Source: Anaerolineaceae bacterium
GTDB lineage: Bacteria; Chloroflexota; Anaerolineae; Promineifilales; Promineifilaceae
Assembly (NCBI GenBank): GCA_002699125.1
Contig: PABI01000032.1
Span: forward strand, 15,588-79,587
DNA length: 64,000 nucleotides
Direction: 5' to 3'
Shown: positions 1 through 64,000 of the stretch, piece by piece
Numbering within the stretch: the stretch's first letter is position 1
Layout of the letters: each line of letters starts with the position of its first letter
Notes under the pieces: model-generated
Databases searched by the model: none
Told to the model about the DNA's origin: nothing
What the model saw: the letters and a program-made list of their open reading frames with translations, nothing else
Program-made: the position numbers and the translations under genes

Positions 1-419
1 ACGGCCTGGGCCAACCGGGCGTGCTGCTGCACGGCGTAGCCACTCGCCCCGGCAAGCCTACTATCGTCGGCGTGGTGAACGGCAAGCCGGTGCTGGGGCT
101 GCCCGGCAACCCTGTCTCGGCGATGGTGCAGTTTGATATGTTTGGCGTGCCCGCCATTTACCATTTGCAGGGCGTAAAAAAGATGCCCCGCCGTGGGCTG
201 GTCTGGGCCCAGCTCAGCCAAAACATCGCCAGCGAAAGCGGCCGGGAAGATTATGTGCCTGCCCGCCTGGAAGACAGTGCCGACGGTCTGCGCGCCATCC
301 CTGTTTTTGGCAAAAGCAACCTCATTTATACCCTCGTCAATGCCGACGGACTGATTAGGGTGCCGCTGAACAAGGGTGGCCTGCTGGCCGGCGAATGGGT
401 GGAAGTTCGTCTGTTTTAA
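1..419 (+). CDS. moeA: Molybdopterin molybdenumtransferase MoeA, C-terminal part (5' end off-window)
   Basis: Frame is open from the window edge. The translation ...LLHGVATRPGKPTIVGVVNGKPVLGLPGNPVSAMVQF... carries the conserved MoeA KPGKP / GLPGNPVS signature. Stop TAA at 417-419. Confidence 0.85.
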   Translation, partial: GLGQPGVLLHGVATRPGKPTIVGVVNGKPVLGLPGNPVSAMVQFDMFGVPAIYHLQGVKKMPRRGLVWAQLSQNIASESGREDYVPARLEDSADGLRAIPVFGKSNLIYTLVNADGLIRVPLNKGGLLAGEWVEVRLF

Positions 420-423
420 GAAG

Positions 424-463
424 AACACCCTTGCCTACATTTGCAGACAAGGGTGTTTTTATT
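424..463 (+). terminator. Rho-independent terminator after moeA (sits between convergent genes)
   Basis: Perfect 10-bp stem AACACCCTTG (424-433) / CAAGGGTGTT (448-457), 14-nt loop, followed by TTTTATT. Confidence 0.6.
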
Positions 464-504
464 GGCTACCTGATCAATTCAGGCAAGTTAAGATTTGTTG
501 AAAC

Positions 505-1737
505 TTAAGGCGCAGTGGCGGTAAACAAAATGGGCAGGTCGGTAACGACCTCGGCACATTTGTCATGGTTGCCGACGTTTGGACCGGCAACAAAGACCAG
601 TGAATCCCACTCACCTTCTGAACCGACACAGCTGATCTCGCTACCAATTGACAGTTCCATGGCATCGACCTCAGCGCTTAAACCGCCATCGGCTGTAACG
701 GAGGCACTGCCGGTGCCGTTGTCTTGCCCATTGTAGAATACTGTTTGGCCAAAGCTGGTGGGTTCCAACAATCCAGCAGAGTTGAATTCCGTACCAACCA
801 GAATGTTCAAGGTAGCGGTATCACCTACGGCAATTGTGCCTGCGTCCCAGGTCAACGATTCTTTAACCATGCCGTCAAACGGATCGGATACAGGCATGAT
901 GATGACATTGCCTGGATCGTCTGTTTCAAATGGCTGGGCTTCGTTGCTGAACGTGTCCTCTACAACGACGTTGGTCAGTTCTGTACCGCCACAATTTTCT
1001 ATTTTGATGGTCACCAGGAAGTAGAAGAGGTTTTCTTCATCGCCATTGTTTTCACCTTGAACGGCTACCGGGATAATGCCATCAGACAAGAACAGATCGT
1101 CTGAAGTGCGGAAGGGGCCATCTAACGTTTTGGTCAGCTTCAGGCAGGGCTCTGCCGGAACGGTTGGTGTGGGCGTTGGTGGAACGGGCGTATTGGTTGG
1201 CGTTGGTGGAATCGGTGTGTTAGTTGGTGTTGGTGGAATTGGTGTGTTGGTTGGCGTTGTTGAGGGTTGTGGTGTGTTTGTCGCCGTTGGTATTGGTGTG
1301 TTGGTGGGTGTATTGGTCGGCGTAGGCTGTGTGCCATCACACGGGCCAAGCGTGGCAATAACCTTCATGTCGTTGGACTGTGCGCCAATATTGATTGTGC
1401 TGGTCAATGGGAACGTGATTCCGAGTTCAGCGTAATCGAGCGGAATCACCACGGTTTCGTTGGCCTCCAGGGGGACGGTAATGATGTAATATTCGCCCAA
1501 GACGATCAGGCGGATGGCTTCTTCTCCAGCCTCGTCTGAAAGGTTAATCACGGTCAGAGAACCGCTTTCACAATTTAAATCTAGAATTAATCGTGTCACG
1601 ATCTGATTGCCTGCTGGCCGCGTGGCGTCGGGGTCGCCGTTGGCACTGGCAAAGTTTACTTGCCAGGAACCCAGGACAAGCAGGGCAATAAGCCCTGTTA
1701 GCAACAGCAGTAATGTTGGCTTAGTTTTATTTTGCAT
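505..1737 (-). CDS. Secreted hypothetical protein with Pro/Thr-rich linker
   Basis: 410-aa ORF with an N-terminal signal-like hydrophobic stretch (KPTLLLLLTGLIALLVLGSW) and a central PT-rich linker. No catalytic motif recognised. Opposite-strand ORFs here are low-complexity artefacts. Confidence 0.7.
   Translation of the reverse strand: MQNKTKPTLLLLLTGLIALLVLGSWQVNFASANGDPDATRPAGNQIVTRLILDLNCESGSLTVINLSDEAGEEAIRLIVLGEYYIITVPLEANETVVIPLDYAELGITFPLTSTINIGAQSNDMKVIATLGPCDGTQPTPTNTPTNTPIPTATNTPQPSTTPTNTPIPPTPTNTPIPPTPTNTPVPPTPTPTVPAEPCLKLTKTLDGPFRTSDDLFLSDGIIPVAVQGENNGDEENLFYFLVTIKIENCGGTELTNVVVEDTFSNEAQPFETDDPGNVIIMPVSDPFDGMVKESLTWDAGTIAVGDTATLNILVGTEFNSAGLLEPTSFGQTVFYNGQDNGTGSASVTADGGLSAEVDAMELSIGSEISCVGSEGEWDSLVFVAGPNVGNHDKCAEVVTDLPILFTATAP
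1147..1332 (-). repeat. Coding tandem repeat (TNTPIPPTP-type PT linker)
   Basis: Near-identical ~27-nt units (ggtgttggtggaat(t/c)ggtgtgtt(a/g)gtt) encode TPTNTPIPPTPTNTPIPPTPTNTPVPPTP. Confidence 0.7.
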
Positions 1738-2078
1738 TTTGGGATCTCCATTCTTTCTTTGTATTGTGAGTTGTTGAGTAGAATTGAGTACAGATCAGCC
1801 TGATGTTTTCAGGCATTTGCGCAAATCACAAGAAATCAGGCAACCTGTTTCAAGGTTTATTATGTGATTTGCACCACTTGCGCAAGGACAGCCCTCCTTT
1901 CCCTGGCTTCGGGCAGAAAGCGCGAAGCAACAAGGCCTGGAACGATAAATATGGCTTGCACTAATCTCTCCCAAGTTAAATGCAAATTTGTTTCTTTTTA
2001 TGGAAATTTTATTTTCAGGACACTGACGCGGGTATTGTAAGCGCGAACGGCCGTTTTCGTCAACTGGAAGCGAAAATT

Positions 2079-3065: not shown

Positions 3066-3069
3066 GCGA

Positions 3070-3130: not shown

Positions 3131-3138
3131 GGAGAAGG

Positions 3139-4134: not shown

Positions 4135-4283
4135 CGTTACTACTCCTCGTAAATCAGCGTCCTATTTTGTGCAGAGAAAATCAGGTTTTTGAAGGCGATT
4201 TCATATTGGTCATGTGAACGGCCGTCATTTTATCTGCTTTGTGGTGGGGTTGCCATTGTCAATGAGTGAGTATAGGGGTTTCG

Positions 4284-4313: not shown

Positions 4314-4322
4314 CAGCCGTCT

Positions 4323-8230: not shown

Positions 8231-9832
8231 ATGGAGTCAACAGAAAGGGAAATTAGTACGTCCAAAGGACGTTTCAAAATATTACTGACATTCATCGTAG
8301 CCATCGCTGGCTTGTTTGTATTGATTCAAACCCTGGCTATTTCAATGACGAGTGGGACAACGCCGACCTATGCGCAAGGCCCCGTTATTACCCCTACTTT
8401 AACCACAGAAGAAAAAATTCAAGAATACATTGAGGCTCATACGATTCAAGGGGACGTAATGCCAGAGGCTACCCCCGAGGCAAGTGAGGCCGTGGAAGAA
8501 CCCCAAGGTGTTGCTGACCTGGATGTTGCCTGGAGCGGCAACACGAGTATGGTCGGTAATCCCGGGACGACGGTTACCTATATGCTCACCTTGTCTAATG
8601 TGGGCAGTGAAGATGACACCTACGATATTACGGAAGCCTCTGGGTGGGCAATCTCGCTATCCGGTACATCCTTTCCAGTTACCGGCGGCTCCTCCACGCC
8701 CGTGAGTGTGACGATTACAGTGCCTCCTGCCGCGATGATTAGTGATTCGGATACGGCCGTTATCACTGCCACCTCCCAAACGGATGGAATGGTAAGTGCC
8801 GTCATAACATTAACGACAACGGCCGGTTCTGAAGTCCTGTATATGCCGATAATGTTCAAAGCCCTTCTGGCTCCAACCCTATCAGCTACCCGTCCGAACA
8901 GCGCCAATGATTGGCAAATGAACTGGACCGATAGCAACATGAATAAAACAGGATTTGAGCTGCAGCAATCCACAGACTCAACATTTGCCAGCAATGTAAC
9001 AACTTACAATTTGGCCAGCAATGTTTCTTCCCAACTGATTAACAACATCGAACCCTCCGCAAGCAACGTTTACTATTATCGTTTGCGCACCCTGGGTGAT
9101 GGCCAATCTAGTCCCTGGTCTCAGGTTGTTGCGGTTGCCGGTGCTTACTACGATGAATTTACCAGCAATCAAACAGGCTGGTCTGGTCCTAACACCTTGA
9201 AAGAAGGTATGCGACGTTTGACCTACATTGAAAAGGTGGACGCCTGGTATGAAAACAGCGACTGGTTGATTATTCGTGTGGAAGATTCTTGGGATTGGGC
9301 CATCGCCAGTCCTATGCTGCCCGCGCCAGAACCGCCCTATGTTATTGAATTTCGCTCAAAACCGGCCAATTTGGGTAACCTGGTTTCTCATGGGTTTGTC
9401 TTTGGTGGCGATTGGACCGGCGCACCTTGTCCAGATTGGAGTACCATCTTAGGCGTTTATGCCCACAAGAACTGCTTTAACCATTTCTACAATTCCAATC
9501 TCATCTGGTCTTCTGACACAGACTTGACCCTGTTGTGGGAACGCGTGGACAATCTGGTTTATTGCCCCAGCTGTGGCGGCAGCCCGTTGAAGCGGCTGGG
9601 TGATGCGTCGATTGTTTTACCTTTCCATCCCAATGCATCTGACTGGAATAGGTATCGTATAGAGGTGCGTGAATCAGATATTAAGTTCTTTATGAACGGC
9701 GATCTTCGCCTGACATATAATGACACGCGCTGGATTGACGATCCTTACTTTGGTGTGTTTGCTTCCACGGATGAATACAGTAACTCTACCTGGCGCTTTG
9801 ACTATATTCGGATAACACCTCTGGATAATTAG
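8231..9832 (+). CDS. Membrane-anchored extracytoplasmic protein (beta-sandwich modules plus ConA/LamG-like C-terminal domain)
   Basis: ATG at 8231 is preceded by GGAGGA (8221-8226). TM anchor ILLTFIVAIAGLFVLIQTLAI. CARDB/NEW3-like (TVTYMLTLSNVGSEDDTYDI) and FN3-like (YYYRLRTLGDGQSSPWS) segments. The C-terminal NRYRIEVRESDIKFFMNGDL resembles DUF1080/LamG-type jelly rolls. Domain calls are from memory. Confidence 0.7.
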   Translation: MESTEREISTSKGRFKILLTFIVAIAGLFVLIQTLAISMTSGTTPTYAQGPVITPTLTTEEKIQEYIEAHTIQGDVMPEATPEASEAVEEPQGVADLDVAWSGNTSMVGNPGTTVTYMLTLSNVGSEDDTYDITEASGWAISLSGTSFPVTGGSSTPVSVTITVPPAAMISDSDTAVITATSQTDGMVSAVITLTTTAGSEVLYMPIMFKALLAPTLSATRPNSANDWQMNWTDSNMNKTGFELQQSTDSTFASNVTTYNLASNVSSQLINNIEPSASNVYYYRLRTLGDGQSSPWSQVVAVAGAYYDEFTSNQTGWSGPNTLKEGMRRLTYIEKVDAWYENSDWLIIRVEDSWDWAIASPMLPAPEPPYVIEFRSKPANLGNLVSHGFVFGGDWTGAPCPDWSTILGVYAHKNCFNHFYNSNLIWSSDTDLTLLWERVDNLVYCPSCGGSPLKRLGDASIVLPFHPNASDWNRYRIEVRESDIKFFMNGDLRLTYNDTRWIDDPYFGVFASTDEYSNSTWRFDYIRITPLDN

Positions 9833-9858
9833 TCAGGTGCGTTTTCGAACGCCTTAAA

Positions 9859-12301: not shown

Positions 12302-14367
12302 GCCGTCGGGTTTTGCTGCTGCTGGTGGTGCTGCTGGCCGCTTTTTTACGGCTTTGGCAGCTGGAATCCCTGCCGCCGGGCCTGTACCATGACGAAGCGT
12401 ACAACGGCCTGGATGCCCTCTCGCTGGTGCAGGGCAAGACATTCCCCCAATTTTACGAAGGCTGGGAGCTGTATGCCCAGGATGCCCATGCCGATAATCC
12501 GCCCACGCCGATGCGCTGGCCCGTTTTTTTTGAAGGCAATTACGGCCGTGAACCCCTCCACGTCTACCTCATGGCCGTCTCCATCTGGCTGTTTGGTCCC
12601 ACGCCGTTTGCCATTCGCCTGGTTCCCGCTCTCTCTGGTGTCCTGGCGGTGCTGCTCACCTATTTCGCCGCCAAAGAACTCCTGGCTGCCAAAAAAAAGC
12701 CACCTAACAATAACCAATCTCCAATAACCAATCTCCAATCTCATATTCCTGTGCTGGCCGCATTTTTTCTGGCAGTTTTGGTGCCCGCCATTCACTTTAG
12801 TCGCTTTGGCCTGCGCATGATGGTGTTTGTGCCGGTTGAAATGCTTACCGTCATCTTTTTCTGGCGCGGCTACAACCTCAGCCAGGTCACCGTGTCACCT
12901 GGTCACCGTGTCACTTGGTCATTTTTACTTGCTGGCTTCTTTCTTGGATTGGGCCTCTACGTCTATGCCGCTGCCCGGCTGTTTCCATTGCTCTTCGTTT
13001 TGTTTATCCTATTTTGGGCGTGGCGCGATTGGTCCGGCTTGCGCCAAAACGTGCTGAATATTGGGGGCATGGCGGCCGTGGCCGTGCTGACGGCGCTGCC
13101 GCTGCTGCTCTATTTTTGGCGCTATCCGTACTTTTTTGTGTTTCGTATTGCCTACGTAGCGAACAAAGGGCTGGGCACGGTCGAGGATCAGCCGCTGTTG
13201 ACCTGGCTGTTGAATGTAGGGCGGGTGGTGCGCGGCCTGTACTGGCAGGGCGAAACACATTTGCGCCATAATTTGCCAGGACGGCCGTATCTCGATCCCC
13301 TTCAAGCCATCTTTTTTACCCTGGGCCTGCTGCAAACCATTCGCCAAAAACTCAATCCCCGCACCGTGTTCCTGCTGCTGTGGCTGCTGGTGATGCTGCT
13401 GCCCACCATCATGAGCGGCGACGCCCCCCACTTTGGTCGCATGACTGGCGCCGCCGGTGTGGTGGCGATTGTGGCGGCGGTTGGCTCTGTCTGGCTTGGG
13501 GAATGGTTAATGGTTAATAGTAAATGGTTAATGGTTAATGGGAAACGCTCGCCGAAGACCTTTCACTTTTTACTTTTCACTTTTTACTTCTTACTCCTCG
13601 CTGGCAGCCTCGCCTTCACCCTCCGCGATTATTTTGGTCGTTACGCTGGCCATCTTCAGCTGGCCGCCGATTTTTACCTGCCGGATTGGGAATTGGGACA
13701 GTTTGCTGCGGAACAGCCGGAGGGAACGGCCGTTTACCTCACGCCCACCCAGGAAGAAATGGCCACCATCTACTTTGCCTTGGCCGACCCCGATGGCATT
13801 AGCAGTTTTTCCGGGGCGAGCACACTCGTTCCGGCAGGGCAGCCAGAGGCGGCGGCACTTTACCTGGTGCGTACCGAGAATGAGGCCAGTTGGCAGCAGC
13901 TGACCAACTTCTTTACCGAATATGAGACGGATCAATCGCGGGATGATTTTTGGGCACTGCACGTGCCAGAGAGCAGTGCCCAGGCGATTGAGGCGGTGGT
14001 TGCGGAGGAAACGGCCGTTTCCTTTGCCAATACCATTCAACTGTTAGGCTGGTCGGTGCAAACGGAGGCTAACCAGGTACAGGTCAATCTGGCCTGGCAG
14101 GCATTGGCAGAAATGCCGCTGGCCTACACGGCATTTGTGCATGTTCTGGATGGCTCGGGGCAAATTGTAGCGCAGCTAGACCGGCAGCCGGAAGGCTATC
14201 CCACCACCGATTGGCAGCCGGGCGAGGTGGTGGTAGACAAGTACACCATCGCGCTGCCAGATGGGCTTCCGCCGGGTCCTTTTATTTTGCAAACCGGATT
14301 TTATGATTTGGCGACATTGAACGGTTTGGGTGAAACGGTCGTACTCACGGAGACCTTCGCCCCATGA
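12298..14367 (+). CDS. GT-C fold membrane glycosyltransferase (GT39/ArnT-like) with shared C-terminal domain and in-frame tandem-repeat insertions
   Basis: 689-aa polytopic ORF. The GTG start overlaps the upstream stop (GTGA). Loop motif PPGLYHDEAYNG. Shared C-terminal domain at 14017-14364. It contains four short tandem-repeat blocks that keep the frame open. Confidence 0.8.
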   Translation: MSRRVLLLLVVLLAAFLRLWQLESLPPGLYHDEAYNGLDALSLVQGKTFPQFYEGWELYAQDAHADNPPTPMRWPVFFEGNYGREPLHVYLMAVSIWLFGPTPFAIRLVPALSGVLAVLLTYFAAKELLAAKKKPPNNNQSPITNLQSHIPVLAAFFLAVLVPAIHFSRFGLRMMVFVPVEMLTVIFFWRGYNLSQVTVSPGHRVTWSFLLAGFFLGLGLYVYAAARLFPLLFVLFILFWAWRDWSGLRQNVLNIGGMAAVAVLTALPLLLYFWRYPYFFVFRIAYVANKGLGTVEDQPLLTWLLNVGRVVRGLYWQGETHLRHNLPGRPYLDPLQAIFFTLGLLQTIRQKLNPRTVFLLLWLLVMLLPTIMSGDAPHFGRMTGAAGVVAIVAAVGSVWLGEWLMVNSKWLMVNGKRSPKTFHFLLFTFYFLLLAGSLAFTLRDYFGRYAGHLQLAADFYLPDWELGQFAAEQPEGTAVYLTPTQEEMATIYFALADPDGISSFSGASTLVPAGQPEAAALYLVRTENEASWQQLTNFFTEYETDQSRDDFWALHVPESSAQAIEAVVAEETAVSFANTIQLLGWSVQTEANQVQVNLAWQALAEMPLAYTAFVHVLDGSGQIVAQLDRQPEGYPTTDWQPGEVVVDKYTIALPDGLPPGPFILQTGFYDLATLNGLGETVVLTETFAP
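12709..12743 (+). repeat. In-frame tandem repeat (AATAACCAATCTCC x2 plus partial; heptamer-like AAT(A/C)(A/T)CC x5)
   Basis: aataaccaatctcc at 12709-12722 and again at 12723-12736, then aatctc(a). Encodes NNNQSPITNLQSH. Confidence 0.8.
12885..12921 (+). repeat. In-frame 16-nt tandem repeat GGTCACCGTGTCAC(C/T)T x2.3
   Basis: ggtcaccgtgtcacct at 12885-12900, ggtcaccgtgtcactt at 12901-12916, ggtca at 12917-12921. Encodes VTVSPGHRVTWS. Confidence 0.8.
13502..13543 (+). repeat. In-frame heptamer array (AATGGTT)n, six units
   Basis: aatggtt aatggtt aatagta aatggtt aatggtt aatggga. The 21-nt super-period encodes WLMVNSK WLMVNGK. Confidence 0.85.
13564..13598 (+). repeat. In-frame heptamer array ((C/T)ACTT(T/C)T)n, five units
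   Basis: cactttt tactttt cactttt tacttct tactcct. Encodes FHFLLFTFYFLLL. Confidence 0.8.
14007..14022. repeat. Example of the iterated palindrome: perfect 16-mer GGAAACGGCCGTTTCC (core ACGGCCGT)
   Basis: Read directly from the sequence. The identical 16-mer recurs at 57449-57464. The 8-nt core occurs ~135 times in the window. Confidence 0.95.
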
Positions 14368-24447: not shown

Positions 24448-24681
24448 TAAGTAATTACCTCGTTATTGGCTTGGGTTAGTAATTTTGAAACAGAAAAGTC
24501 CCCGGTTGCGCAGGTAGGGATACATCTCTGCAAACGACCTTGGGACAGAATGGCTCGAAGTATAGCAAAAGCTTTTTACTTTCAAAATTTGGCAATGTTG
24601 TTGTGCAATGCCAAGCTGCCTTATCATTATGACTGCAAACAAACAGCACAAATTAACATAACATTTAGTCGGCAACGGCCG

Positions 24682-42453: not shown

Positions 42454-42559
42454 TTCCGGGCAAAATCTAAGCAAATCTACTCTTTTTGACCAAATTTAAC
42501 TTCAATAAGGTATAATCGGTGCATTAGTTTAGCGACATCGGCCCCAATTGTTTACCTTT

Positions 42560-50154: not shown

Positions 50155-50697
50155 ATGAGCAAAAAGAAGACACTCGCTGCGGCCGCAGATGACGAAACAG
50201 AATTTATTGTGATTGGCGAAATCACCAAACCGCATGGGGTGCGTGGCGAGATGCGGGTGAAGCCGCATACCGACGAACCGGAGCGGTTTACCTGGCTAGA
50301 GCAGGTGTACATCGGTGAAGAGAATCCCCGTTTAATGGCGGTAGAGAAGGCGCGGCTGCACCAGGGAATGATCTTGCTCAAGTTAGCGGCCGTAAACGAC
50401 CGAACTGCTGCTGATACCCTGCGTGGTGAATGGCTCATGGTGCCAGAAACCGAGGCGCTTCCCCTGGAAGAAGGTGAATATTTCCTGTTCCAGCTCGAAG
50501 GGCTGGCCGTCTCCACCGTGGAGGGTGAGGCGCTGGGCACCTTAACCCGTATCATCGAGACAGGGGCCAACAATGTGTTTGTGGTGCAGGGTGAGCAGGG
50601 CGAGCTGCTTTTGCCAGACATTGCAGACGTGGTGCAGGAAATTGATTTTGAAAACGGCCGTATGGTTGTGGCCTTGCTGCCCGGCCTACGGCCGTAG
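50155..50697 (+). CDS. rimM: 16S rRNA processing protein RimM
   Basis: Start moved to ATG 50155 because the track start at 50059 lies in the terminator. GEITKPHGVRGEMRVKPHTD and the PRC-barrel-like C-terminus are typical RimM. Confidence 0.85.
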   Translation: MSKKKTLAAAADDETEFIVIGEITKPHGVRGEMRVKPHTDEPERFTWLEQVYIGEENPRLMAVEKARLHQGMILLKLAAVNDRTAADTLRGEWLMVPETEALPLEEGEYFLFQLEGLAVSTVEGEALGTLTRIIETGANNVFVVQGEQGELLLPDIADVVQEIDFENGRMVVALLPGLRP

Positions 50698-50787: not shown

Positions 50788-51915
50788 ATGTCCGACCTGA
50801 AGTATTGGCTTGGTTTTAATTTGGTAAAAGGCATCGGTCCGGCCAAGGTGCAGGCCTTGCTGGATTACTACGGTTCGCTGGCCAATGCGTGGCAGGCCAA
50901 TGAGTACGAGCTGCAAAAAATCGGGCTGGATCGACGGGCCATAAAAACGTTTTTGGAGACGCGCCAGGCGGTAGATTTGGATCTGGCACTGGCGCGCGTG
51001 GAGCAGGCGGGTGTCTCTTTGCTCACCTGGGAGATGCCGACCTATCCCAAATATTTGCGCGAGATTCCCAATCCGCCACCGCTGCTTTATTACCAGGGTG
51101 AGCTGCGCGAGCAAGACCAGTGGGCGGTGGCCGTGGTGGGCACGCGGCGGCTGACCGGCTACGGCCGTCAGGTGACACAAGATTTGGTTGCCGGGCTGGT
51201 GCAAAATAACGTCACCATCATTAGTGGGTTGGCGCGCGGGATTGATGCTATTGCCCATAAAACGGCCGTGGAATTTGGCGGCCGAACCCTGGCTGTGCTG
51301 GGTTCTGGCCTGGATTGCATCTACCCGGCCGAGCACCGTACGTTGGCGCAAGAAATTGCGCAAGGGCAAGGGGCTATCATCAGCGAATATGGCCTGGGCG
51401 TGCAGCCGGAAGCCAAAAATTTTCCGCCCCGTAACCGCATCATCAGTGGGCTTTCATTGGGCGTAATCATTGTTGAAGCAGGTGAACGGAGCGGCGCGCT
51501 TATCACGACTAACTTTGCCCTGGAGCAAAACCGCGAAGTGTTTGCCGTACCGGGTAATATCAACAGTCCGGTTAGCAGCGGACCCAACAAGCTGATTCAA
51601 GAAGGGGCCAAGCTGGTGCGGCGGGTGGAAGATGTCCTGGAAGAGCTGAATTTGCACATGGTGGTTGAGCATACGGCCGTACAAATGGTACTCCCCGAAA
51701 CGGCCGAAGAAGTGGCCCTATACACTCAGCTTTCGGCCCAGCCGGTACACATCGACGAATTGAGCCGGGCCACGGGCCTGCCCAGCGCCCTGGTAAGCAG
51801 CACCCTGACATTGATGGAACTCAAGGGGATGGTGCAGCAGGTTGGCGGCATGAACTATATTTTGCTTCGTGAAGATGGACCCGTTTACGATACAACAACC
51901 GACAATAAACAATGA
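50788..51915 (+). CDS. dprA: DNA-processing protein DprA
   Basis: N-terminal SAM-like LKYWLGFNLVKGIGPAKV, Rossmann core GLARGIDAIAHKTA...IISEY, and a C-terminal winged-helix-like tail. Confidence 0.9.
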   Translation: MSDLKYWLGFNLVKGIGPAKVQALLDYYGSLANAWQANEYELQKIGLDRRAIKTFLETRQAVDLDLALARVEQAGVSLLTWEMPTYPKYLREIPNPPPLLYYQGELREQDQWAVAVVGTRRLTGYGRQVTQDLVAGLVQNNVTIISGLARGIDAIAHKTAVEFGGRTLAVLGSGLDCIYPAEHRTLAQEIAQGQGAIISEYGLGVQPEAKNFPPRNRIISGLSLGVIIVEAGERSGALITTNFALEQNREVFAVPGNINSPVSSGPNKLIQEGAKLVRRVEDVLEELNLHMVVEHTAVQMVLPETAEEVALYTQLSAQPVHIDELSRATGLPSALVSSTLTLMELKGMVQQVGGMNYILLREDGPVYDTTTDNKQ

Positions 51916-51924
51916 GGATAGAAT

Positions 51925-53025
51925 ATGAAAATTATCATTTTTGCCGGTGGCTCTGGCCGCCGCTTGTGGCCGCTTAGCCGTAAAAAATCCCCCAAGCAGT
52001 TTGAACCGATCATTGGTGAAAAATCGACACTGCGCCTGGCAGTCGATCGGGTGGAACCGGTTTATGGTGCAGAAAATATCTTCATTTCGACCAACGAGCG
52101 TTACGTAGACATCATTCGTAAGCAGCTGCCGGAACTGCCCCCGGACAACGTCATTGGCGAGCCGACCCGACGAGATCTGGCGGCGGCCGTGGGGCTGGCG
52201 CTGTCTCACCTGGCCCACGCGACTCCGGAAGAGGCGCAGGAAAACGAGCCAGTGGCCATTTTGTGGGGCGACAATTACATGGACCAGGTTGATGTATTTC
52301 GGCGCGTCCTGGAGAGCGCGGAAAAGCTGATTGCCAGCCAGAAAGCCAAAATTATTTTCATGGGCGAAACGCCTCGTTTTGCCAACGATCAGCTGGGCTG
52401 GATTGGTTTGGGTGAGGAAAAGGGAACGGTGAACGGCCGTGCCTACTTCGGCTTCAAATCGTTGCGCTACCGGCCACCGTTAGCCGAGTGTCAACAGATG
52501 TTTGCCGAAAATACACATGTGTGGAATACTGGCTACTTCGTAACCACTATCGGTTTTGTGCGCAAACAGTACCAACAGCTGCAACCCACCATGTGGGCTG
52601 GCCTCAAGGAAATTGAAGAAGCAATTGGGCAGCCAAATTACCAGGAGACCTTGCAGCGCGTCTACCCGAATTTTGAGGTCATCAGCTTTGATGACGCGAT
52701 TCTGCACCACATAAAACCGGATGATGCGCTGGTGCTGCATGGCGAGATGGGTTGGAGCGATCCGGGTACCTTATATGCGCTTAAAGAGGCGATTAATCCT
52801 GACCTGAAGGCCAATGTAACCAAAGGCCAAGTCATTGCCGAGCAGACAAACGATAGCCTGGTTTTTAATTATGAAGAAAACAAGCTGGTAACGGTTATTG
52901 GCCTTGAAGGGATGATTGTGGTAAACACGGAAGATGCTATCCTGGTTGTACACAAGGATAATATTCCTTTGGTTAAGAAAGTGGTTAACGACCTGGAAGG
53001 GACTGATTTAGAAGCGTATAGTTGA
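51925..53025 (+). CDS. Mannose-1-phosphate guanylyltransferase-like sugar nucleotidyltransferase
   Basis: MKIIIFAGGSGRRLWPLSRKKSPKQF (GGxGxRLWPLS signature) and a length typical of ManC-type enzymes. Confidence 0.8.
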   Translation: MKIIIFAGGSGRRLWPLSRKKSPKQFEPIIGEKSTLRLAVDRVEPVYGAENIFISTNERYVDIIRKQLPELPPDNVIGEPTRRDLAAAVGLALSHLAHATPEEAQENEPVAILWGDNYMDQVDVFRRVLESAEKLIASQKAKIIFMGETPRFANDQLGWIGLGEEKGTVNGRAYFGFKSLRYRPPLAECQQMFAENTHVWNTGYFVTTIGFVRKQYQQLQPTMWAGLKEIEEAIGQPNYQETLQRVYPNFEVISFDDAILHHIKPDDALVLHGEMGWSDPGTLYALKEAINPDLKANVTKGQVIAEQTNDSLVFNYEENKLVTVIGLEGMIVVNTEDAILVVHKDNIPLVKKVVNDLEGTDLEAYS

Positions 53026-53046
53026 TTTTGTTGAACTCGTTTTGCT

Positions 53047-53101
53047 AAACAGAAAACGTAAAACGGGCAGGTTTGGCACCGTTTTACGTTTTCTGTTTTA
53101 T
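53047..53101 (+). terminator. Strong rho-independent terminator
   Basis: Perfect 20-bp stem AAACAGAAAACGTAAAACGG (53047-53066) / CCGTTTTACGTTTTCTGTTT (53079-53098), 12-nt loop, then a T/A-rich tail. Confidence 0.8.
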
Positions 53102-53113
53102 ATAGATATTTTT

Positions 53114-55519
53114 ATGAGTGATGAAGAAAAATTGATTGGATATTGTTTTAAATGCCGCGAAAAGCATGAAATTTTGGAGCCCAAGGCAGAGTGGGCGGCC
53201 AATGGATCGCCCGGGACGCGTGGAACCTGTGCCAACTGTGGGGGAACCATCTACAAGGCAGGGTATACGCCGGCCCACGATGATTTGCCTAAGCCCGAAA
53301 TAAAAGTGACGCGGAAAAGCAAAAAGAAAAAGAAGTCCGCCAAGAAAAAATCGTCGCGGAGTAAGGGCAACACGCGCCGCTCGGGTAAACTGGTGGTGGT
53401 GGAATCCCCGGCCAAGGCCAGAACCATTGGTCGCTATTTGGGCAAAGGCTACAATGTCAAGTCCAGCGTGGGGCACGTGCGTGATTTGCTTAAATCACGC
53501 CTGAGCGTGGATGTAGAGAACGATTTTGATCCCGAATACCGCGTGCCCAACGAGAAGCGGGATGTGGTGAAAGAGCTAAAAGCAGCCGCCGCCAAAGCCA
53601 AAGAAATTTACCTGGCGACTGACCCGGATCGTGAGGGTGAGGCAATCGCCTGGCACGTGTTGGAATCGGCGGAGATGGACCCGGACATTACACAGCGGGT
53701 GGTGTTTCACGAGATTACCAAGCCGGCCATTGAGAAGGCGTTTTTGGAGCCACGTGGCATCGACATGGATCGGGTGAATGCCCAGCAGGCGCGCCGCATT
53801 TTGGATCGATTGGTGGGATATAAGCTGAGCCCACTGCTGTGGCGCAAGGTGCGCGGCCGTTTGTCGGCCGGGCGCGTGCAGTCTGTGGCGGTGCGGTTAG
53901 TGGTCGAGCGCGAGCGCGAGATTAAAGAGTTTGTCTCTGAAGAGTATTGGACGCTGGGTGCCGAGTTGAGCCGGGAACAGGACCGTGATGAAAAGGAACG
54001 GCCGTTCTTCCAGGCACGTCTACACAAATTGAACGGGGAAGACCCCGTGCTGCAAAGCGAAGAAGACGTGCAGCCCCATCTGGTGGCGCTGGAAAAAGGC
54101 GTCTGGGAAATTGGTGAGGTGCGCATTGGCAAACGGACTCGTCGTCCCGCTGCGCCGTTTACCACCAGTACCATGCAGCAAGAAGCATCGCGGCGGCTGG
54201 GCTTTAATACCAGCAAGACGATGCGCATTGCTCAGCAGCTGTACGAAGGCATCGACCTGGGTGGTGAAGAAGGTGCTATCGGTTTAATCACTTACATGCG
54301 TACTGACAGCGTTTCTGTGAGCAAAGAAGCGGAAACCGAAGCGCGCTCTTACGTCGGCAAGCGGTTTGGGGCCACGTACGTGCCGGTGAAGCCGCCGCAG
54401 TACAAAACCAAGTCCAAAACGGCGCAGGAAGCGCATGAGGCTGTGCGGCCCACGTCTGTGCAGCGCGTGCCCAAGCCGATTAAAGAGCATCTGTCGCGGG
54501 ACCAGTACCGTTTGTACAAGCTGATCTGGGATCGCTTTGTGGCCAGCCAGATGGCGCCGGCCCGGTACGATACGGTGTCGGTGGATATTTATGCGGGGGA
54601 TGAGAAGGTGGCGACAGTGAAACGGCCGTATCTCTTCCGCGCTACCGGGTCGGTAATGACCTTTGCCGGTTTCCTGGCATTGTATGAAGAAAGCCGTCCG
54701 GAAGACCGCCCCGACGATGACCAAAACCAGGTGCCGTCTGATTTGACAGAAGGCGAAATGCTCGATTTGCTGCGCCTGCTGCCGGAACAACATTTTACCC
54801 AGCCGCCGCCACGATTCAGTGAAGCGACGCTAGTGAAATCATTGGAAGAGTACGGCATTGGCCGTCCCAGCACCTATGCCTCCATCATTTCCACCATTCA
54901 AAATCGGGGATATGTTGATCGCGTCGATAAGCGGCTCCAGCCCACCGAGACCGGGCAGATTGTGAATGATCTACTGGTGGAATATTTCCCCAACATTCTG
55001 TCGGTTGATTTTACGGCGCGGCTGGAGGATGAGCTGGACAAGATTGCCGAGGGCGAGCCGTGGGTGCCGGTCATCGGCAGCTTCTACGGCCAGTTTTCCG
55101 AGAATTTGGAAGTGGCCAATGAATCAATCCCCAAGATTGATTTGAAGCCTGAGGTTGAGTTGGTGGGGCGCGAGTGCCCGTTGTGTGGTAATGATTTAGT
55201 GTACCGGGAAGGACGATACGGCCGTTTCATCGGCTGCTCTAACTTCCCCAAATGCCGCCACACGGAGCAACTGCTCATCAAAGTGGGCGTCACCTGCCCC
55301 AACGGTGGTGAGATGGTTGAACGGCGCACCCGGCGTGGCCGCGTTTTTTACGGCTGCTCTCGCTATCCGGACTGTGAATTTAGCAGCTGGAAAAAGCCGG
55401 TGCCCGACCCTAACAATAGCTGCCACGGCCTGCTGGTGCAGCTCAATGAAAACGAAACGGACTGTGTGGCCTGCGGCCTTAAAGAGCCTGTCGAAGACAA
55501 AGAAGCCGTCGCCGATTAA
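53114..55519 (+). CDS. topA: DNA topoisomerase I with extra N-terminal zinc ribbon and Lys-rich linker
   Basis: Start moved to ATG 53114, after the terminator. TOPRIM motif KLVVVESPAKARTIGRYLG, catalytic Tyr motif GLITYMRTDS, and C-terminal Cys4 ribbons (CPLCGNDL...CSNFPKC). The N-terminal CFKCREKHE...CANCGG ribbon is followed by KSKKKKKSAKKKSSRSK. Confidence 0.95.
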   Translation: MSDEEKLIGYCFKCREKHEILEPKAEWAANGSPGTRGTCANCGGTIYKAGYTPAHDDLPKPEIKVTRKSKKKKKSAKKKSSRSKGNTRRSGKLVVVESPAKARTIGRYLGKGYNVKSSVGHVRDLLKSRLSVDVENDFDPEYRVPNEKRDVVKELKAAAAKAKEIYLATDPDREGEAIAWHVLESAEMDPDITQRVVFHEITKPAIEKAFLEPRGIDMDRVNAQQARRILDRLVGYKLSPLLWRKVRGRLSAGRVQSVAVRLVVEREREIKEFVSEEYWTLGAELSREQDRDEKERPFFQARLHKLNGEDPVLQSEEDVQPHLVALEKGVWEIGEVRIGKRTRRPAAPFTTSTMQQEASRRLGFNTSKTMRIAQQLYEGIDLGGEEGAIGLITYMRTDSVSVSKEAETEARSYVGKRFGATYVPVKPPQYKTKSKTAQEAHEAVRPTSVQRVPKPIKEHLSRDQYRLYKLIWDRFVASQMAPARYDTVSVDIYAGDEKVATVKRPYLFRATGSVMTFAGFLALYEESRPEDRPDDDQNQVPSDLTEGEMLDLLRLLPEQHFTQPPPRFSEATLVKSLEEYGIGRPSTYASIISTIQNRGYVDRVDKRLQPTETGQIVNDLLVEYFPNILSVDFTARLEDELDKIAEGEPWVPVIGSFYGQFSENLEVANESIPKIDLKPEVELVGRECPLCGNDLVYREGRYGRFIGCSNFPKCRHTEQLLIKVGVTCPNGGEMVERRTRRGRVFYGCSRYPDCEFSSWKKPVPDPNNSCHGLLVQLNENETDCVACGLKEPVEDKEAVAD

Positions 55520-55819: not shown

Positions 55820-57790
55820 ATGAACCTTCGCCTTGCTTCAATCTTGTCTTTCTTCACCCTGGCATTGACCTTGATCGTAGGTTTGGGCATGGATACGCGT
55901 CAATCTGTAGCGGCTCCTGCCGGGACAACCGATCAACTCACCTATTTGCCATTTGTGGCCAAAGCGCCCGATTTGTTTATCACCAACCTGGAAATCAGCC
56001 AATCCGTTCAGGATGCCAATAACACGGTGCCCCTGGTGGCTAACCGACCCACGGTGGTGCGAGTCTACACAGCTACCAGCAGCGGCAACAGTGTGCCCAA
56101 TACCAGCATTACCCTAACAGCCACGCGCAACGGCGTTGCCCTGACGCCGGTAACTTCTGGTGTCAAAACTGCCTCCGGCGCTTCCAGCCGCAGCAGCCTA
56201 AGCAGCACGTACAATGTTACCTTGCCCGCCGACTGGCTTTCTGGCACTGTTTTAATAACGGCTAAGGTGACCGGTGAACCTATCGGCAGCTTTACAAAGC
56301 TGGTTACGTTCAATACAGTCCCTACTTTGAACGTTGTTTTAGTGCCAATCAATTACACGCATACTCCAACAGGAGTTACTTTTCCAGGTCCAAATAGTGA
56401 TGGAATCAGCGACTGGATCATGCGAGCCTATCCGCTGAGCAATATGAATGTGACGCTCCATCCAAATGGAATGAATTTTTCAGGGAATTTACGAGAGGCT
56501 GCTTCCTGGGAGCAATTATTAAACGATGTAAGCCAGCTTAAAGATAATGATATTGATTTCTATTCTCCCACAGTGTATTACGCCTATATCGATTTTGACT
56601 GTGGCTGGTTCAATTGCAGTACAGGGGGCATTGCCGGTATCGGCTGGATTGGTTTCCGGGCTGCTGTTGGTTTTGATCATCCATCAACCGAGGTGACGGG
56701 TGAACTGGCCGGACATGAAATTGGTCACAACTTTGGTCGTTACCATGCGCCTTGTGGGGTAAGCGGTGATGCAAATTATCCTTACACGGGTGCCTCAATT
56801 GGTCAGTATGGTCTGGATGGCATCGGTGGTTCACTAGAACTGCTCAGCCCCAATGACTATGTGGACATGATGAGCTACTGTGACCCGGTTTGGGTGTCTG
56901 ATTACACCTACGAGGCGCTTTACACCGATCAGGTGAACAACGGTGCACTGGTTTGGGCACCGGCAGAGGAAAGTTTAGTCGTTCGTGGTTCTGTGGCTGA
57001 AGACGGAGCTGTCTCGCTTAATCCGGTTTACATTTTGCCGCAAACGGCCGTCAACCCCCAAAACGGTCTCTACGAAGTGGAACTGCTGGATACAGCAGGC
57101 AACATCATCGCCACTCATTCGTTGGATTTGCTGATTGCTGAGGAAGAAGGTGTCTCTGCCCAGGCCATTCACGGCGTGGTGCCGGCACCGGAAGTGCCGG
57201 TGGCCGAACTGCGGATCGTGGAAGTGGCTTCGGGAACGGCCGTTGCCAACCGTACCCTCTCCACTGCCAGCATGGCGGCTAACGCCACGCTGAACCAACG
57301 CAGTGAAACGGCGACCGTCAGCTGGGGCATTGCTGACGTGCCGGCCAACGTGCGCTACACGGTGGGCAATGGCCAGACGTGGACGACGGTTGGCTTAAAC
57401 GTGCTGGGCGGCAGTTTAGACGTTGATCTGAGCAATTTGCCGGGTGGGGGAAACGGCCGTTTCCAAATCATCCTGGCCGATCAGGGTACGCCTACCCGCT
57501 TTGAGGTTGCGCTGCCCACGCCGCTGGCCGACAAGCAGCCCACCGCCTGGATCACCGGCCCCAATGTTGTGTCTACCGGTGCTCCGGCTGAGCTCTACGC
57601 CTTTGGCTCCGACGCCGAAGATGGGGCTTTACGCGATTTTGCCTGGTCGGTGGATGGTGAAGCAGTTGATGCAGACTCGGCGCTGTTCTTGCACGAGCTG
57701 GCCCCCGGTGAGCATGTGATTACTTTGCGCGCAACAACGAGCAGCGGGCAAACGGCCGTTACCAGCAAGGTGATTACCGTTGCGCCGTAG
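55820..57790 (+). CDS. Secreted zinc metalloprotease (metzincin-type HExxHxxGxxH)
   Basis: Signal-like N-terminus (LASILSFFTLALTLIVGLG). HEIGHNFGRYH motif. C-terminal beta-sandwich-like repeats. Confidence 0.8.
   Translation: MNLRLASILSFFTLALTLIVGLGMDTRQSVAAPAGTTDQLTYLPFVAKAPDLFITNLEISQSVQDANNTVPLVANRPTVVRVYTATSSGNSVPNTSITLTATRNGVALTPVTSGVKTASGASSRSSLSSTYNVTLPADWLSGTVLITAKVTGEPIGSFTKLVTFNTVPTLNVVLVPINYTHTPTGVTFPGPNSDGISDWIMRAYPLSNMNVTLHPNGMNFSGNLREAASWEQLLNDVSQLKDNDIDFYSPTVYYAYIDFDCGWFNCSTGGIAGIGWIGFRAAVGFDHPSTEVTGELAGHEIGHNFGRYHAPCGVSGDANYPYTGASIGQYGLDGIGGSLELLSPNDYVDMMSYCDPVWVSDYTYEALYTDQVNNGALVWAPAEESLVVRGSVAEDGAVSLNPVYILPQTAVNPQNGLYEVELLDTAGNIIATHSLDLLIAEEEGVSAQAIHGVVPAPEVPVAELRIVEVASGTAVANRTLSTASMAANATLNQRSETATVSWGIADVPANVRYTVGNGQTWTTVGLNVLGGSLDVDLSNLPGGGNGRFQIILADQGTPTRFEVALPTPLADKQPTAWITGPNVVSTGAPAELYAFGSDAEDGALRDFAWSVDGEAVDADSALFLHELAPGEHVITLRATTSSGQTAVTSKVITVAP
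57449..57464. repeat. Example of the iterated palindrome: perfect 16-mer GGAAACGGCCGTTTCC
   Basis: Read directly from the sequence. Identical to 14007-14022. Confidence 0.95.
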
Positions 57791-59644: not shown

Positions 59645-59650
59645 AGAAAC

Positions 59651-62190: not shown

Positions 62191-62228
62191 AATCTGCCTC
62201 GTTTAAGTGAAAACGGACCAATATAACA

Positions 62229-63512
62229 TTACCAACCACCTTGACGATGGAAATGGTTTACTTCCACAGGATTGGCCGGATCAGTTACGTCAAAAATGTA
62301 TAAGCCTGTATCCCAATCGACGATGAACATATGCCCGTTTTCGACAGCAATATCGGTGAGGTGAGTGTCGGGAAACAAGGAGAGAACCAACTGCGGGTTG
62401 ACTGGATCGGCAATATCAACGATTTGAAGTCCATTTGAGATTATATAAGCAAAGTGACCAATAAGTGCCAACTGCCGACCGCCAAGCGATTGTGTGGTAC
62501 TTAACGCAACAGGTTGGCTGCGATCCGAAATATCTAATATTTGTAAAGAACGAGGGCTGACAAGATAAGCATAATCGTCACGAACAGCAAAATCCAGGTA
62601 CTCTTCGCTCGATTCATAACGTCCAAGCTCTAAAAATTCAAGGGGATTGCCTGTGTCGTATATCGAAAAAGTGCCGTAACAGGCTGTTCTATAACATGCA
62701 TGGTCAAACCAGTAACGATATTCATCTACAACCGCGAAACGGCCGTAATGGAACACCTCATGTACATGCTGTAGGTCAAGCGGGATTTGCGTTGGGTTAG
62801 CTACGTCTGACACATCGACGATTTCCCAGGTAAAGTTGCTAACAAGATAGGCGACATTGTCAATAACAGTCAGGTTAAATACATTAAAATGGGTGTTGTA
62901 AAAGCCGGATGTGGCGAATTCTGTTGAAGGTAATAAATCAGAAAAAGCAGCCACGTTGATAATTTGTAGCCCGGTGTCTAGCTTTTCACTGATTGTAGGG
63001 CCAGTATGAAGCATGTTGCCCGGTGTTCCCAGAGCAGCGTAAATGTAGTCGCCAATAATTTGAACATCATTGATCTGATTCAGGAAAGAATGTGTTCGCC
63101 CTGAATACATCCGGTTGGGCTCAAAGACATTGTGCAAAACGACCAGCCGTTTGCCGTAGCTAACATAGGCGCGATCCCCTTGTACCGCTACGGCTGTATA
63201 ATGCGCCGGAAATCTGGCCTCCTGTGTCGCCAGCAATGCAGTGGGTGAAAGAGTGGTGGGCGTCTCAGGGGTGGGCGAAACCGCCTCTCGGTGATCGTTT
63301 CCAATGCCAAGCACCGGTTGGGTCGCCGTGGGCACGATGGGGGTTGGCGTAGCCTGAGTTTGCAGCGTCGGTTGGGGTGGCTGGGCAGTTATGGTTGTTT
63401 CTAGAACTGGCATGGGGCTGGGAACGGCCGCATCCTCCTCCGAACAGCCCAATAATCCATACCAGCCTACAAAAAACAATCCCAGGCAAATCCATCTGAC
63501 AGGCCGCACCAT
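62229..63512 (-). CDS. LVIVD-repeat beta-propeller lipoprotein (paralog)
   Basis: Start preferred at 63512 (MVRPVRWICLGLFFVGWYGLLGC), which avoids overlap with the PRTase gene. Repeats WEIVDVSDVANPTQI, LQILDISDRSQPVAL, LQIVDIADPVNPQLV, LYIFDVTDPANPVEV. Confidence 0.8.
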   Translation of the reverse strand: MVRPVRWICLGLFFVGWYGLLGCSEEDAAVPSPMPVLETTITAQPPQPTLQTQATPTPIVPTATQPVLGIGNDHREAVSPTPETPTTLSPTALLATQEARFPAHYTAVAVQGDRAYVSYGKRLVVLHNVFEPNRMYSGRTHSFLNQINDVQIIGDYIYAALGTPGNMLHTGPTISEKLDTGLQIINVAAFSDLLPSTEFATSGFYNTHFNVFNLTVIDNVAYLVSNFTWEIVDVSDVANPTQIPLDLQHVHEVFHYGRFAVVDEYRYWFDHACYRTACYGTFSIYDTGNPLEFLELGRYESSEEYLDFAVRDDYAYLVSPRSLQILDISDRSQPVALSTTQSLGGRQLALIGHFAYIISNGLQIVDIADPVNPQLVLSLFPDTHLTDIAVENGHMFIVDWDTGLYIFDVTDPANPVEVNHFHRQGGW

Positions 63513-63531
63513 TTTTGACAAATCGCCTGTA

Positions 63532-63990
63532 TTAAGAATCCTCGCTTGTGAAAACGGGCAAATTGGCCAGGGCAACGATATTGCTCCAGTCGGCATCACC
63601 TTCGGTGAAAACGGCCGCAGTCTTCACAATCTCACCGCCGGCATGTGCTACCACATTTTCCATGCCTTTTAATGTACTGCCAGTGCTGATCACATCATCA
63701 ACCAGAACGACCTTTTTATTTTTGATAAACTCTTTATCTTTTTCATCCAGGTAAAGCGTTTGCGGCTTGCCGGTGGTGATGGAGACGGTTTCGGCGCTGA
63801 TGGCATCGCCCATGTAGCTTTTGTACGATTTTCGCAGGACGATGTAAGGTAGGCCCATCAAGGCGCTCATCTCGTAGATGAGGGGAATGCCCTTGGCTTC
63901 GGCCGTTACCAGCACTTCGGCCGGCGTATTTTTTAGCCGCTCGGCCAGGGCTGCGGCCGTGGCCTTCACAACAATGGTATCGCCCAGCAT
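63532..63990 (-). CDS. Phosphoribosyltransferase-family protein (purine/adenine PRTase-like); may extend past the window edge
   Basis: PRPP-binding motif KKVVLVDDVISTGSTL. The frame stays open to position 64000, so the true start is uncertain. Confidence 0.7.
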   Translation of the reverse strand: MLGDTIVVKATAAALAERLKNTPAEVLVTAEAKGIPLIYEMSALMGLPYIVLRKSYKSYMGDAISAETVSITTGKPQTLYLDEKDKEFIKNKKVVLVDDVISTGSTLKGMENVVAHAGGEIVKTAAVFTEGDADWSNIVALANLPVFTSEDS

Positions 63991-64000
63991 ATTAAAAATG

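Follow-up and report, generated by a model that had tools for sequence, protein, structure and literature searches.

The window considered here is the whole stretch of DNA that was analysed, 64,000 nucleotides of contig PABI01000032.1 (assembly GCA_002699125.1, positions 15,588–79,587) from an Anaerolineaceae bacterium which is placed by GTDB in the Promineifilaceae of the Chloroflexota. The window holds the conserved block ffh-rpsP-KH-rimM-dprA-nucleotidyltransferase-topA and a long array of genes for PMT_2/YfhO-type membrane glycosyltransferase-like proteins. Our subject is an 8-base palindrome, ACGGCCGT, which is its own reverse complement, has G or C at six of its eight positions and recurs through the window; we refer to it as the word. 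Genomes which carry it are called word-positive and genomes in which it occurs at background level are called word-free. A first-pass annotation, made from the letters of the window, had estimated about 135 copies and had likened the word to HIP1, the highly iterated palindrome (HIP) of cyanobacteria. This likeness has held up with regard to over-representation, dispersal, conservation between orthologs, and clade-wide spread with loss.

An exact count over the whole window gives 135 copies or 2.1 per kb, precisely the number estimated before, whereas 100 dinucleotide-preserving shuffles contain on average 1.39 and at most six copies. The word is thus about 100-fold over-represented. It ranks first among all octamers, the next ranks are occupied by its own overlaps, and the runner-up among the palindromic octamers has five copies. 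As had also been claimed, one-mismatch relatives are rare, with 13 copies of GCGGCCGT, seven each of ACGGCCGC and ACGGCCGA, and between zero and four copies of the interior variants. The word of HIP1, GCGATCGC, has no copy within the 64-kb window. Markov models of the orders 0–3 predict 1.4–6.0 copies of ACGGCCGT, and with the sites masked the orders 1–3 predict 1.1–2.0 copies. When the order of the codons is shuffled within genes, 2.3 copies are expected in coding sequence, and when synonymous codons are shuffled, which retains every protein and the codon usage of each gene, 17.6 copies (maximum 27), compared to 134 observed. Codon shuffling had been proposed as a check beforehand, as had been the maximal-order Markov expectation, for which a ratio near one was to count as refutation. 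The latter expectation amounts to 118 copies and the observed-to-expected ratio of 1.14 is indeed near one, yet it refutes nothing. The ratio is uninformative because the heptamers entering the calculation come almost wholly from the word itself (135 of 150 ACGGCCG and 135 of 152 CGGCCGT), and the test is circular because it only asks whether both end bases are independent given the core. We therefore dropped the ratio of 1.1 as an argument against the word.

Coding sequence holds 132 of the 135 copies (98%), in all three reading frames, as noted before, and in both gene orientations. The frames are used 71 times (Thr-Ala-Val), 35 times ([NDHY]-Gly-Arg) and 28 times (x-Arg-Pro). The three intergenic copies that had been named before are present, and they are the only ones: the copy at 2047–2054 is a lone GC-rich word amid an AT-rich spacer, the copy at 4218–4225 has divergent genes on either side, and the copy at 24675–24682 is located upstream of a GT2/GtrA gene. 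The density differs between genes: those under high constraint are the poorest in the word (ffh, 0.7 per kb), and the membrane glycosyltransferase-like genes are the richest, with 3–4 per kb. Within the window the spacing of the sites fits an exponential distribution (Kolmogorov–Smirnov test, p = 0.32), and the site-free first 2 kb, which we considered as a possible signal, do not stand out statistically among 134 gaps which average 453 bp. The closest-packed local cluster comprises three copies in one gene, 45 and 48 bp apart (19017–19117).

Evidence for a process acting on the DNA comes from ffh, rimM, dprA, the nucleotidyltransferase gene, and topA, which we aligned codon by codon. The word is found at matching positions in species whose DNA is only ∼70–80% identical. 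The copy in ffh (47885–47892, peptide GRRPLL) is present in 54 of 57 word-positive and in none of 23 word-free genomes, and the copy in rimM (50654–50661, ENGRM) in 43 of 52 and in none of 22, the word-free relatives having other amino acids at this place. The three copies in dprA are conserved in 33 (51161–51168, SYGRQ), 27 (51262–51269, KTAVE, which reads KTALE in word-free relatives), and 38 (51673–51680, xTAVQ) of 44 word-positive genomes, and in zero to one of 21 word-free ones. In topA the three copies are found in 34 (53998–54005, ERPFF), 39 (54622–54629, KRPYL), and 34 (55218–55225, RYGRFI) of 42 word-positive genomes and each in one of 19 word-free genomes. The copy in the nucleotidyltransferase gene (52433–52440) is conserved in 14 of 40; a further copy of the block is located in rpsP (49124–49131). 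At these sites the word-free relatives mostly have the same amino acids (GRRPLL, KRPYL, RYGRFI) encoded by mixed synonymous codons, whereas in the word-positive genomes the eight bases are fixed and the adjacent synonymous positions vary. In fact the major allele at third codon positions has a frequency of 0.89 within the word and of 0.60 in the flanking ten codons of word-positive genomes, as compared to 0.50 and 0.56, respectively, in word-free relatives. The orthologous 8-mers are aligned with zero gaps, and therefore the copies arise by point substitution and not by insertion.

At some sites a change of the amino acid was needed, namely from TAL to TAV in dprA and from assorted residues to NGR in rimM. 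The imprint on the proteins is considerable. The word encodes 71 of the 73 Thr-Ala-Val tripeptides of the window and likewise 35 of the 40 [NDHY]-Gly-Arg and 28 of the 36 x-Arg-Pro-[FLSYCW] peptides. With 73 occurrences, where 9.4 are expected, TAV is the most frequent tripeptide of the window proteins, ahead of LLL; there is a deficit of TAL and TAI. Among the aligned DprA orthologs the mean number of TAV per protein is 1.70 in word-positive and 0.06 in word-free genomes. As TAV is encoded almost totally by the word, it is the DNA word which shapes the codons and proteins and not the reverse, and the case shows how strongly a pressure at the DNA level can reshape proteins.

By an ffh-based scan with one genome per GTDB species we retrieved 80 loci. 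Their labels are nearly all of the Chloroflexota type (Candidatus Promineifilaceae, 'Ardenticatenaceae', Anaerolineae, Candidatus Leptofilum, Promineifilum), with one reading Patescibacteria; the NCBI lineage of Ca. Leptofilum reads Chloroflexota; Ardenticatenia; Promineifilales; Promineifilaceae. About 56 of the 80 species loci contain the word at 0.5–2.4 per kb, and in almost all of these it is the top octamer. The word-positive loci span a GC content of 43–58%. The word is at background in 23 of the 80 loci, including all Promineifilum and other outgroups. When the 51 loci with at least 0.9 copies per kb are pooled, 1497 sites are found in 911 kb (1.64 per kb) vs. 31 sites in 404 kb of word-free DNA. 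In a distance tree of four proteins the word-positive genomes form one large clade. Nested within is a subclade in which the word is reduced (0.5–0.7 per kb) or lost (≤0.2 per kb), with the loci L055, L071, and L076 as members (also L072, L073, and L080). The first-pass annotation had suggested a comparison of orthologs for gain and loss of sites; sites are kept across the word-positive species and the ancestral sites in the word-losing subclade have decayed to mixed synonymous codons. The subclade is thus a natural loss-of-function series by which the responsible genes could be traced.

With regard to the source of the window itself, a hydantoinase gene and its neighbors have matches of 100% identity among the metagenome scaffolds of TARA Oceans, of which TARA_SAMEA2623741_METAG-scaffold_259 is the longest (125 kb). 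We did not find strain polymorphism, as the other contigs with window genes are 100% identical to the window.

Several observations were made on other loci and contigs. Some word-free relatives have other frequent palindromic octamers which may be alternate HIPs, each count resting on a single locus of 10–21 kb: TGCCGGCA with eight copies in 9.9 kb in L052 (∼0.4–0.5 expected), CGATATCG with six copies in 21 kb in L082 (0.3–0.65 expected), CCGGCCGG with 21 copies in L056, and CGCCGGCG with 13 copies in L081. The metagenome contigs L234, L257, and L258 have dispersed ACGGCCGT at 2.5–3.8 per kb and a GC content of 0.62–0.65, which exceeds that of all 80 species loci, and have no orthologous genes in common with these loci; they may represent a further lineage with the word. 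A metagenome scan for three clustered copies of the word returned mostly an unrelated tandem satellite with the unit TGTACACGGCCG. These degenerate satellites, present on L283, L308, L307, L281, L262, L267, and similar short metagenome contigs, yield 10–18 copies of the word per kb and thereby confound pattern searches, and they are unrelated to the dispersed palindrome.

The word is also present in mobile DNA. Scanning IMG/VR for word-rich contigs we obtained a limited set with 2–4 sites per kb. On a 65.5-kb tailed-phage contig (L151/L217/L375, IMGVR_UViG_3300048592_001391) there are genes for a portal protein (E = 2e-71), a large terminase, and a head protease, and these genes contain the word in all frames at 1.5–5 per kb. 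Contig L149, also of a tailed phage, encodes a terminase and is likewise rich in the word. A 100-kb contig (L102/L176, IMGVR_UViG_3300033417_000002) resembles a conjugative element in that it encodes ParA, an FtsK/TraB-like ATPase, and a transglycosylase. Taken together, the phage structural genes and this element have 2–3.7 sites per kb. The word density of the mobile contigs equals that of weakly constrained host genes. The data thus show that resident mobile DNA is subject to the same force, and they do not show a special enrichment in phages.

The immediate surroundings of the sites give a hint how the word is read. The flanks had been described as leaning toward A (5′) and T (3′), and in the window each of these two bases adjoins the word at 75 of 135 sites; AACGGCCGTT occurs 37 times and the perfect 16-mer GGAAACGGCCGTTTCC, with the complete flank extension, twice, at 14007–14022 and 57449–57464, exactly as annotated. 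The extension, roughly ggAA-ACGGCCGT-TTcc, is weak (≤0.25 bit per flank position), symmetric and identical across all three frames. The complementarity of the left and right flanks is at the level predicted from the separate base frequencies, that is, there is no covariation. Hence there is no selection for a hairpin, a reading we rejected on this ground together with RNA structure in general, and each half-site is read separately, as would be the case for a dimeric protein on duplex DNA. Rfam and tRNA scans of the DNA gave no match. From the strict twofold symmetry of the 8-bp core and the weak, symmetric flanks without covariation we infer that a sequence-specific, dimeric protein would read the word in the form of duplex DNA. 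In the pooled set, site pairs less than 15 bp apart are missing (0 vs. ∼38 expected), gaps of more than 2 kb are fewer than expected (28 vs. 49), and the coefficient of variation of the spacing is 0.90. The pooled frame counts are 657/461/275, and 7% of the pooled sites are located outside long open reading frames, which is ∼0.7 of the proportional rate.

Near-matches were compared between word-positive genomes and word-free relatives. Transversion variants differing from the word at one position are about twofold lower in the former, transition variants are equal, and variants of positions 1 and 8 are slightly higher. CGGCCG beyond the word occurs about once per kb in word-positive genomes and is not avoided. 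We attempted to deduce methylation from the mutation spectrum and had to reject this approach, as one-off words explained by a C-to-T change are no commoner than in the word-free relatives; the decayed sites could not be used for this purpose either, since they are too saturated to be read.

HIPs are characterized by an observed-to-expected ratio of tens to hundreds and by about 0.3–2.7 copies per kb. HIP1 stems from one phylum only, its function has been debated for about 30 years, and a Chi-like role is among the suggestions. Like HIP1 (GCGATCGC) and the alternate cyanobacterial HIPs (GGGATCCC, CAGGCCTG, TCGATCGA), ACGGCCGT is a GC-rich palindromic octamer. It shares with HIP1 the ∼100-fold excess at ∼2 copies per kb, the dispersal over coding and non-coding DNA and every frame, the conservation of orthologous positions, the concentration of deviations at the first and last base, the weak extensions which preserve the palindrome, and the clade-wide presence with secondary loss in some lineages. 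Thus, a palindromic GC-rich octamer which is hyper-abundant, dispersed, conserved, and clade-wide with loss is found, and at the level of the sequence, where these properties were tested, ACGGCCGT has every one by which a HIP is defined. On the other hand, the word is a different one, it belongs to Chloroflexota and not to Cyanobacteria, and it is known here from sequence alone; HIP1 is linked to a cognate methyltransferase and no such link was found for ACGGCCGT in the DNA searched. Given the different phylum we presume an independent origin, and apparently this is a second, independent HIP system in another phylum. Of HIP1 it has been reported that its sites are conserved between genomes (PMC5861425), that it is tied to orphan methyltransferases (PMC4390886), that it raises natural transformation in a way that depends on methylation (bioRxiv 10.1101/2024.09.10.611283), and it has been proposed as an uptake or self-DNA watermark (bioRxiv 10.64898/2026.06.24.733823). 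The survey of alternate HIPs by Elhai does not contain CGGCCG (PMC4390886), and this survey as well as the HIP1 studies of 2018 (PMC5861425) and 2026 (bioRxiv 10.64898/2026.06.24.733823) cover cyanobacterial genomes only. In the open-access literature, 291 papers contain ACGGCCGT, and none of the top-ranked among them describes it as a repeat of genomes. We likewise found no survey of over-represented palindromic octamers in which the word is included, nothing that links CGGCCG methylation or HIP1 to Chloroflexota, and nothing that contains both 'Promineifil' and 'palindrom'.

Other classes of short repeated sequences agree less well with the word. The uptake signal sequences (USS) of Pasteurellaceae and the DNA uptake sequences (DUS) of Neisseriaceae are also short clade-specific words at ∼1–2 per kb which lie inside genes in several frames, bias the peptide content, and are supposed to spread by fixation bias. 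However, USS and DUS are asymmetric, 9–12 bp long, and often paired in terminators, whereas ACGGCCGT is a strict 8-bp palindrome with 98% of its copies in coding sequence; an asymmetric core of 9–12 bp in inverted pairs at intergenic terminators is not seen. Chi, the site of RecBCD/AddAB, is likewise an over-represented 5–8-mer which marks self DNA, and the density of the word is in the range of Chi in Firmicutes. In contrast to the word with its ∼100-fold excess, Chi is asymmetric, co-oriented with replication and only few-fold over-represented; a palindrome has no orientation and hence does not show the strand orientation of Chi, and we know of no palindromic Chi. In Vsr-type very-short-patch repair of E. 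coli (CCWGG) the frequency of a word is also shifted by a repair bias linked to methylation, but the effect is far smaller and the one-off CTWGG is clearly depleted, a depletion not seen for ACGGCCGT. The copies are also unlike repetitive extragenic palindromes (REP) or miniature inverted-repeat transposable elements (MITE), as the orthologous 8-mers align without gaps, conservation does not extend into the flanks, and 98% of the copies are in coding sequence. Avoidance as a restriction target does not apply to a word enriched 100-fold, with CGGCCG elsewhere at about one per kb.

Taken together, there is hardly any doubt that ACGGCCGT is a HIP-type element which is created and kept by a directional force at the DNA level, and that this force is clade-specific, can be lost and acts on phages as well. 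It acts on whatever DNA resides in these cells, holds the copies at thousands of orthologous positions, overrides synonymous drift and even alters amino acids, and the word decays once the force is lost. The first-pass annotation had argued for a DNA-level process rather than protein selection from the frames, and the fixation at orthologous positions, the saturation of the compatible peptides, and the clade-wide spread independent of GC content now lend further weight to this view. As to what the force is, our answer is tentative. The reading which we favor, by analogy with HIP1, is that the word might be a self-DNA tag in recombination, uptake or repair. In somewhat broader terms it is conceivable, and to about the same degree, that the word belongs to a clade-specific genome-maintenance system with a writer and/or a reader, which distinguishes self from foreign DNA in recombination, uptake or defense, has evolved independently of HIP1, and is imitated by phages and conjugative elements. 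The most likely arrangement, again modeled on HIP1, would be that an orphan cytosine methyltransferase marks the CGGCCG/GGCC core and that the reader of the word sits in a recombination or DNA uptake pathway. Uptake, sparing or recombination would then be more efficient for DNA bearing the word, and each new copy would gain a small fixation advantage and each loss would suffer a disadvantage. Copies would therefore pile up wherever the encoded protein tolerates them.

Several findings weigh against such a self-DNA system. A repair or conversion bias of a purely neutral kind would equally lead to conservation of position and to saturation, and a drive operating by uptake only should not act on strictly lytic phages. 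In addition, a clade-specific DNA methyltransferase (sought by catalytic-motif patterns), reader or competence gene was not found in the DNA searched, which comprised the window with both of its flanks on the TARA scaffold and the loci of the 80 related species, together with ∼340 kb of viral and ∼75 kb of metagenome DNA rich in the word. Among the word-rich phage contigs only one DNA methyltransferase is clear-cut (L363, IMGVR_UViG_3300033072_001034, 9018–9839); it is of the N4-cytosine type (Pfam N6_N4_Mtase), with the rotifer N4CMT as the nearest solved structure. It has more than 7000 homologs with E below 1e-30, the close ones sharing 71–95% identity, and homologs adjoin MvaI/BcnI-family endonucleases on contigs from which the word is wholly absent. 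We therefore regard it as an ordinary restriction–modification methyltransferase, probably serving anti-restriction, and reject it as the writer of the word. Of the competence machinery only dprA was seen. That dprA is in the window, at 50788–51915, had been noted correctly, and an uptake role of the word had been considered in this connection; evidence for such a role is not provided, as the ffh-rimM-dprA-topA block including dprA is equally present in 21 word-free relatives. Thus dprA says nothing on an uptake role either way.

The main alternative is a neutral ratchet in which a clade-specific mismatch or very-short-patch-type repair, possibly directed by methylation, converts near-matches into ACGGCCGT and restores mutated copies, so that the word would be a functionless by-product. 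The near-total encoding of compatible peptides and the reshaped proteins are typical of a directional drive of this kind, phages replicating in these cells hold the word at the density of weakly constrained host genes, the word decays fast after its loss in one subclade, and the twofold lower frequency of transversion one-off words points in the same direction. Very-short-patch repair as it is known lifts word counts by well under twofold and not 100-fold, however, and the enzyme would require full 8-bp specificity. Transition one-off words show no depletion and those altered at an end position (1 or 8) tend if anything toward an excess, which leaves the ratchet with no clear sink, and the deficit of gaps exceeding 2 kb is not predicted by it. 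The ratchet accounts for the saturation and the phage data just as well as a self-DNA tag does. The same model has been put forward for HIP1 (PMC4390886). Altogether we consider it rather unlikely, if to be taken seriously. In a further reading the word would be the binding site of a nucleoid-associated or condensin-type protein of high abundance, with selection for its even distribution over the chromosome: the coefficient of variation of 0.85–0.90 and the few long gaps indicate a spacing slightly more even than random, the exclusion zone of 15 bp is consistent with a protein footprint, and a symmetric site suits a dimeric binding protein. On periodicity the same proposal has been made for HIP1 (PMC5861425). 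Yet the saturation of every compatible peptide far exceeds what regular spacing needs, the spacing within the window fits an exponential distribution as given above, and phage structural genes have a high word density, though a phage has no obvious need of host nucleoid sites. A role in chromosome architecture therefore appears improbable to us.

Still less can be said for the word, or its CGGCCG/GGCC core, as the target of a resident restriction–modification or methyl-dependent defense system, its abundance then reflecting protection or mimicry. The core is an EagI/HaeIII-type site, the phages of the clade bear the word, and the word-free locus L052 is nearly without CGGCCG (one copy in 9.9 kb), which argues that restriction pressure on this core exists in the family. 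However, to our knowledge targets of resident systems are normally avoided rather than enriched 100-fold, word-positive genomes show no avoidance of CGGCCG beyond the word, and restriction–modification genes were not found near any copy of the word, which makes this explanation very improbable. That the word is due to protein-level selection, codon usage, a mobile element, an RNA hairpin or an artifact of assembly or sequencing can practically be dismissed. It is true that 71 of 134 coding copies encode Thr-Ala-Val. But the word uses three frames and intergenic DNA, word-free relatives keep the amino acids with mixed codons, and the shuffle of synonymous codons yields 17.6 copies vs. 134 observed. 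Copies arising by substitution, without gaps in the orthologous 8-mers, do not agree with a mobile element, flanks of ≤0.25 bit per position and without covariation agree neither with a mobile element nor with a hairpin, and matching sites in dozens of independent assemblies exclude an artifact. By the frames, the shuffles, the gapless orthologs, the flanks, and the independent assemblies we regard these readings as refuted.

An independent case with a different word in a different phylum, dozens of genomes, and natural loss lineages provides a second test case for HIP1, and by comparing the two phyla it becomes testable which genes track the word in both. If the word does belong to a self-DNA system as suggested above, HIPs would be a recurrent convergent solution of bacteria and not a cyanobacterial oddity, and the comparison could reveal common machinery. 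The Promineifilaceae are abundant filamentous bacteria of wastewater plants and the sea, and we know of no cultured member of the clade. As a marker specific to this clade, the word can serve in binning and in the assignment of phages and plasmids to their Promineifilaceae hosts, and word-poor regions flag recent horizontal transfer. Should the analogy with HIP1 hold, the addition of (methylated) copies of the word could aid the genetic tractability of these uncultured bacteria.

For reference, the copies of ACGGCCGT in the window start at the positions 2047, 2446, 2596, 3416, 4218, 4751, 4810, 6288, 6585, 6707, 7095, 7281, 7645, 8753, 10398, 10477, 11147, 11416, 11488, 11840, 12542, 13281, 13726, 14011, 14874, 14984, 15080, 15304, 15879, 15972, 16186, 16406, 16692, 16726, 17384, 17626, 18070, 18669, 18774, 19017, 19062, 19110, 19365, 19602, 20976, 21599, 21771, 21803, 22163, 22622, 22781, 23072, 23585, 24380, 24675, 25349, 26403, 26669, 28102, 28775, 29212, 29308, 29769, 29906, 30151, 30691, 30808, 30982, 31166, 31429, 31548, 32355, 32772, 32927, 33498, 33833, 34116, 35298, 35845, 36300, 36976, 37040, 37445, 37990, 38162, 38600, 38789, 39287, 39557, 40018, 40160, 41198, 41462, 41728, 42113, 42230, 43298, 43608, 44551, 44716, 44735, 44897, 46051, 46105, 46416, 46900, 47885, 49124, 50654, 50688, 51161, 51262, 51673, 52433, 53998, 54622, 55218, 57044, 57236, 57453, 57752, 58121, 58420, 58874, 58896, 59480, 59744, 60189, 60339, 60729, 60847, 61994, 62051, 62099, and 62739.

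Apart from the word, the window has some further features. The region 4323–42262 (∼38 kb) comprises about a dozen large polytopic PMT/PMT_2/YfhO-type glycosyltransferase-like genes together with genes for GT2 enzymes, a class I methyltransferase, a radical-SAM/SPASM protein, an epimerase, and a flippase-like protein, and appears to be a very large locus for cell-envelope glycans. The protein encoded at 42548–43867 has an N-terminal effector-associated domain 7 (EAD7) and a C-terminal HATPase_c domain and is kept in the closest relatives; this architecture is typical of conflict and defense systems. Within the conserved block, rpsP (49039–49719), encoding ribosomal protein S16, has a C-terminal extension of ∼160 residues, and the product of topA (53042–55519) has a DUF5679 zinc-ribbon domain at its N-terminus. 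The plus strand has more G than C (19143 vs. 16291) and harbors the majority of the genes, and therefore the window probably lies within one replichore.

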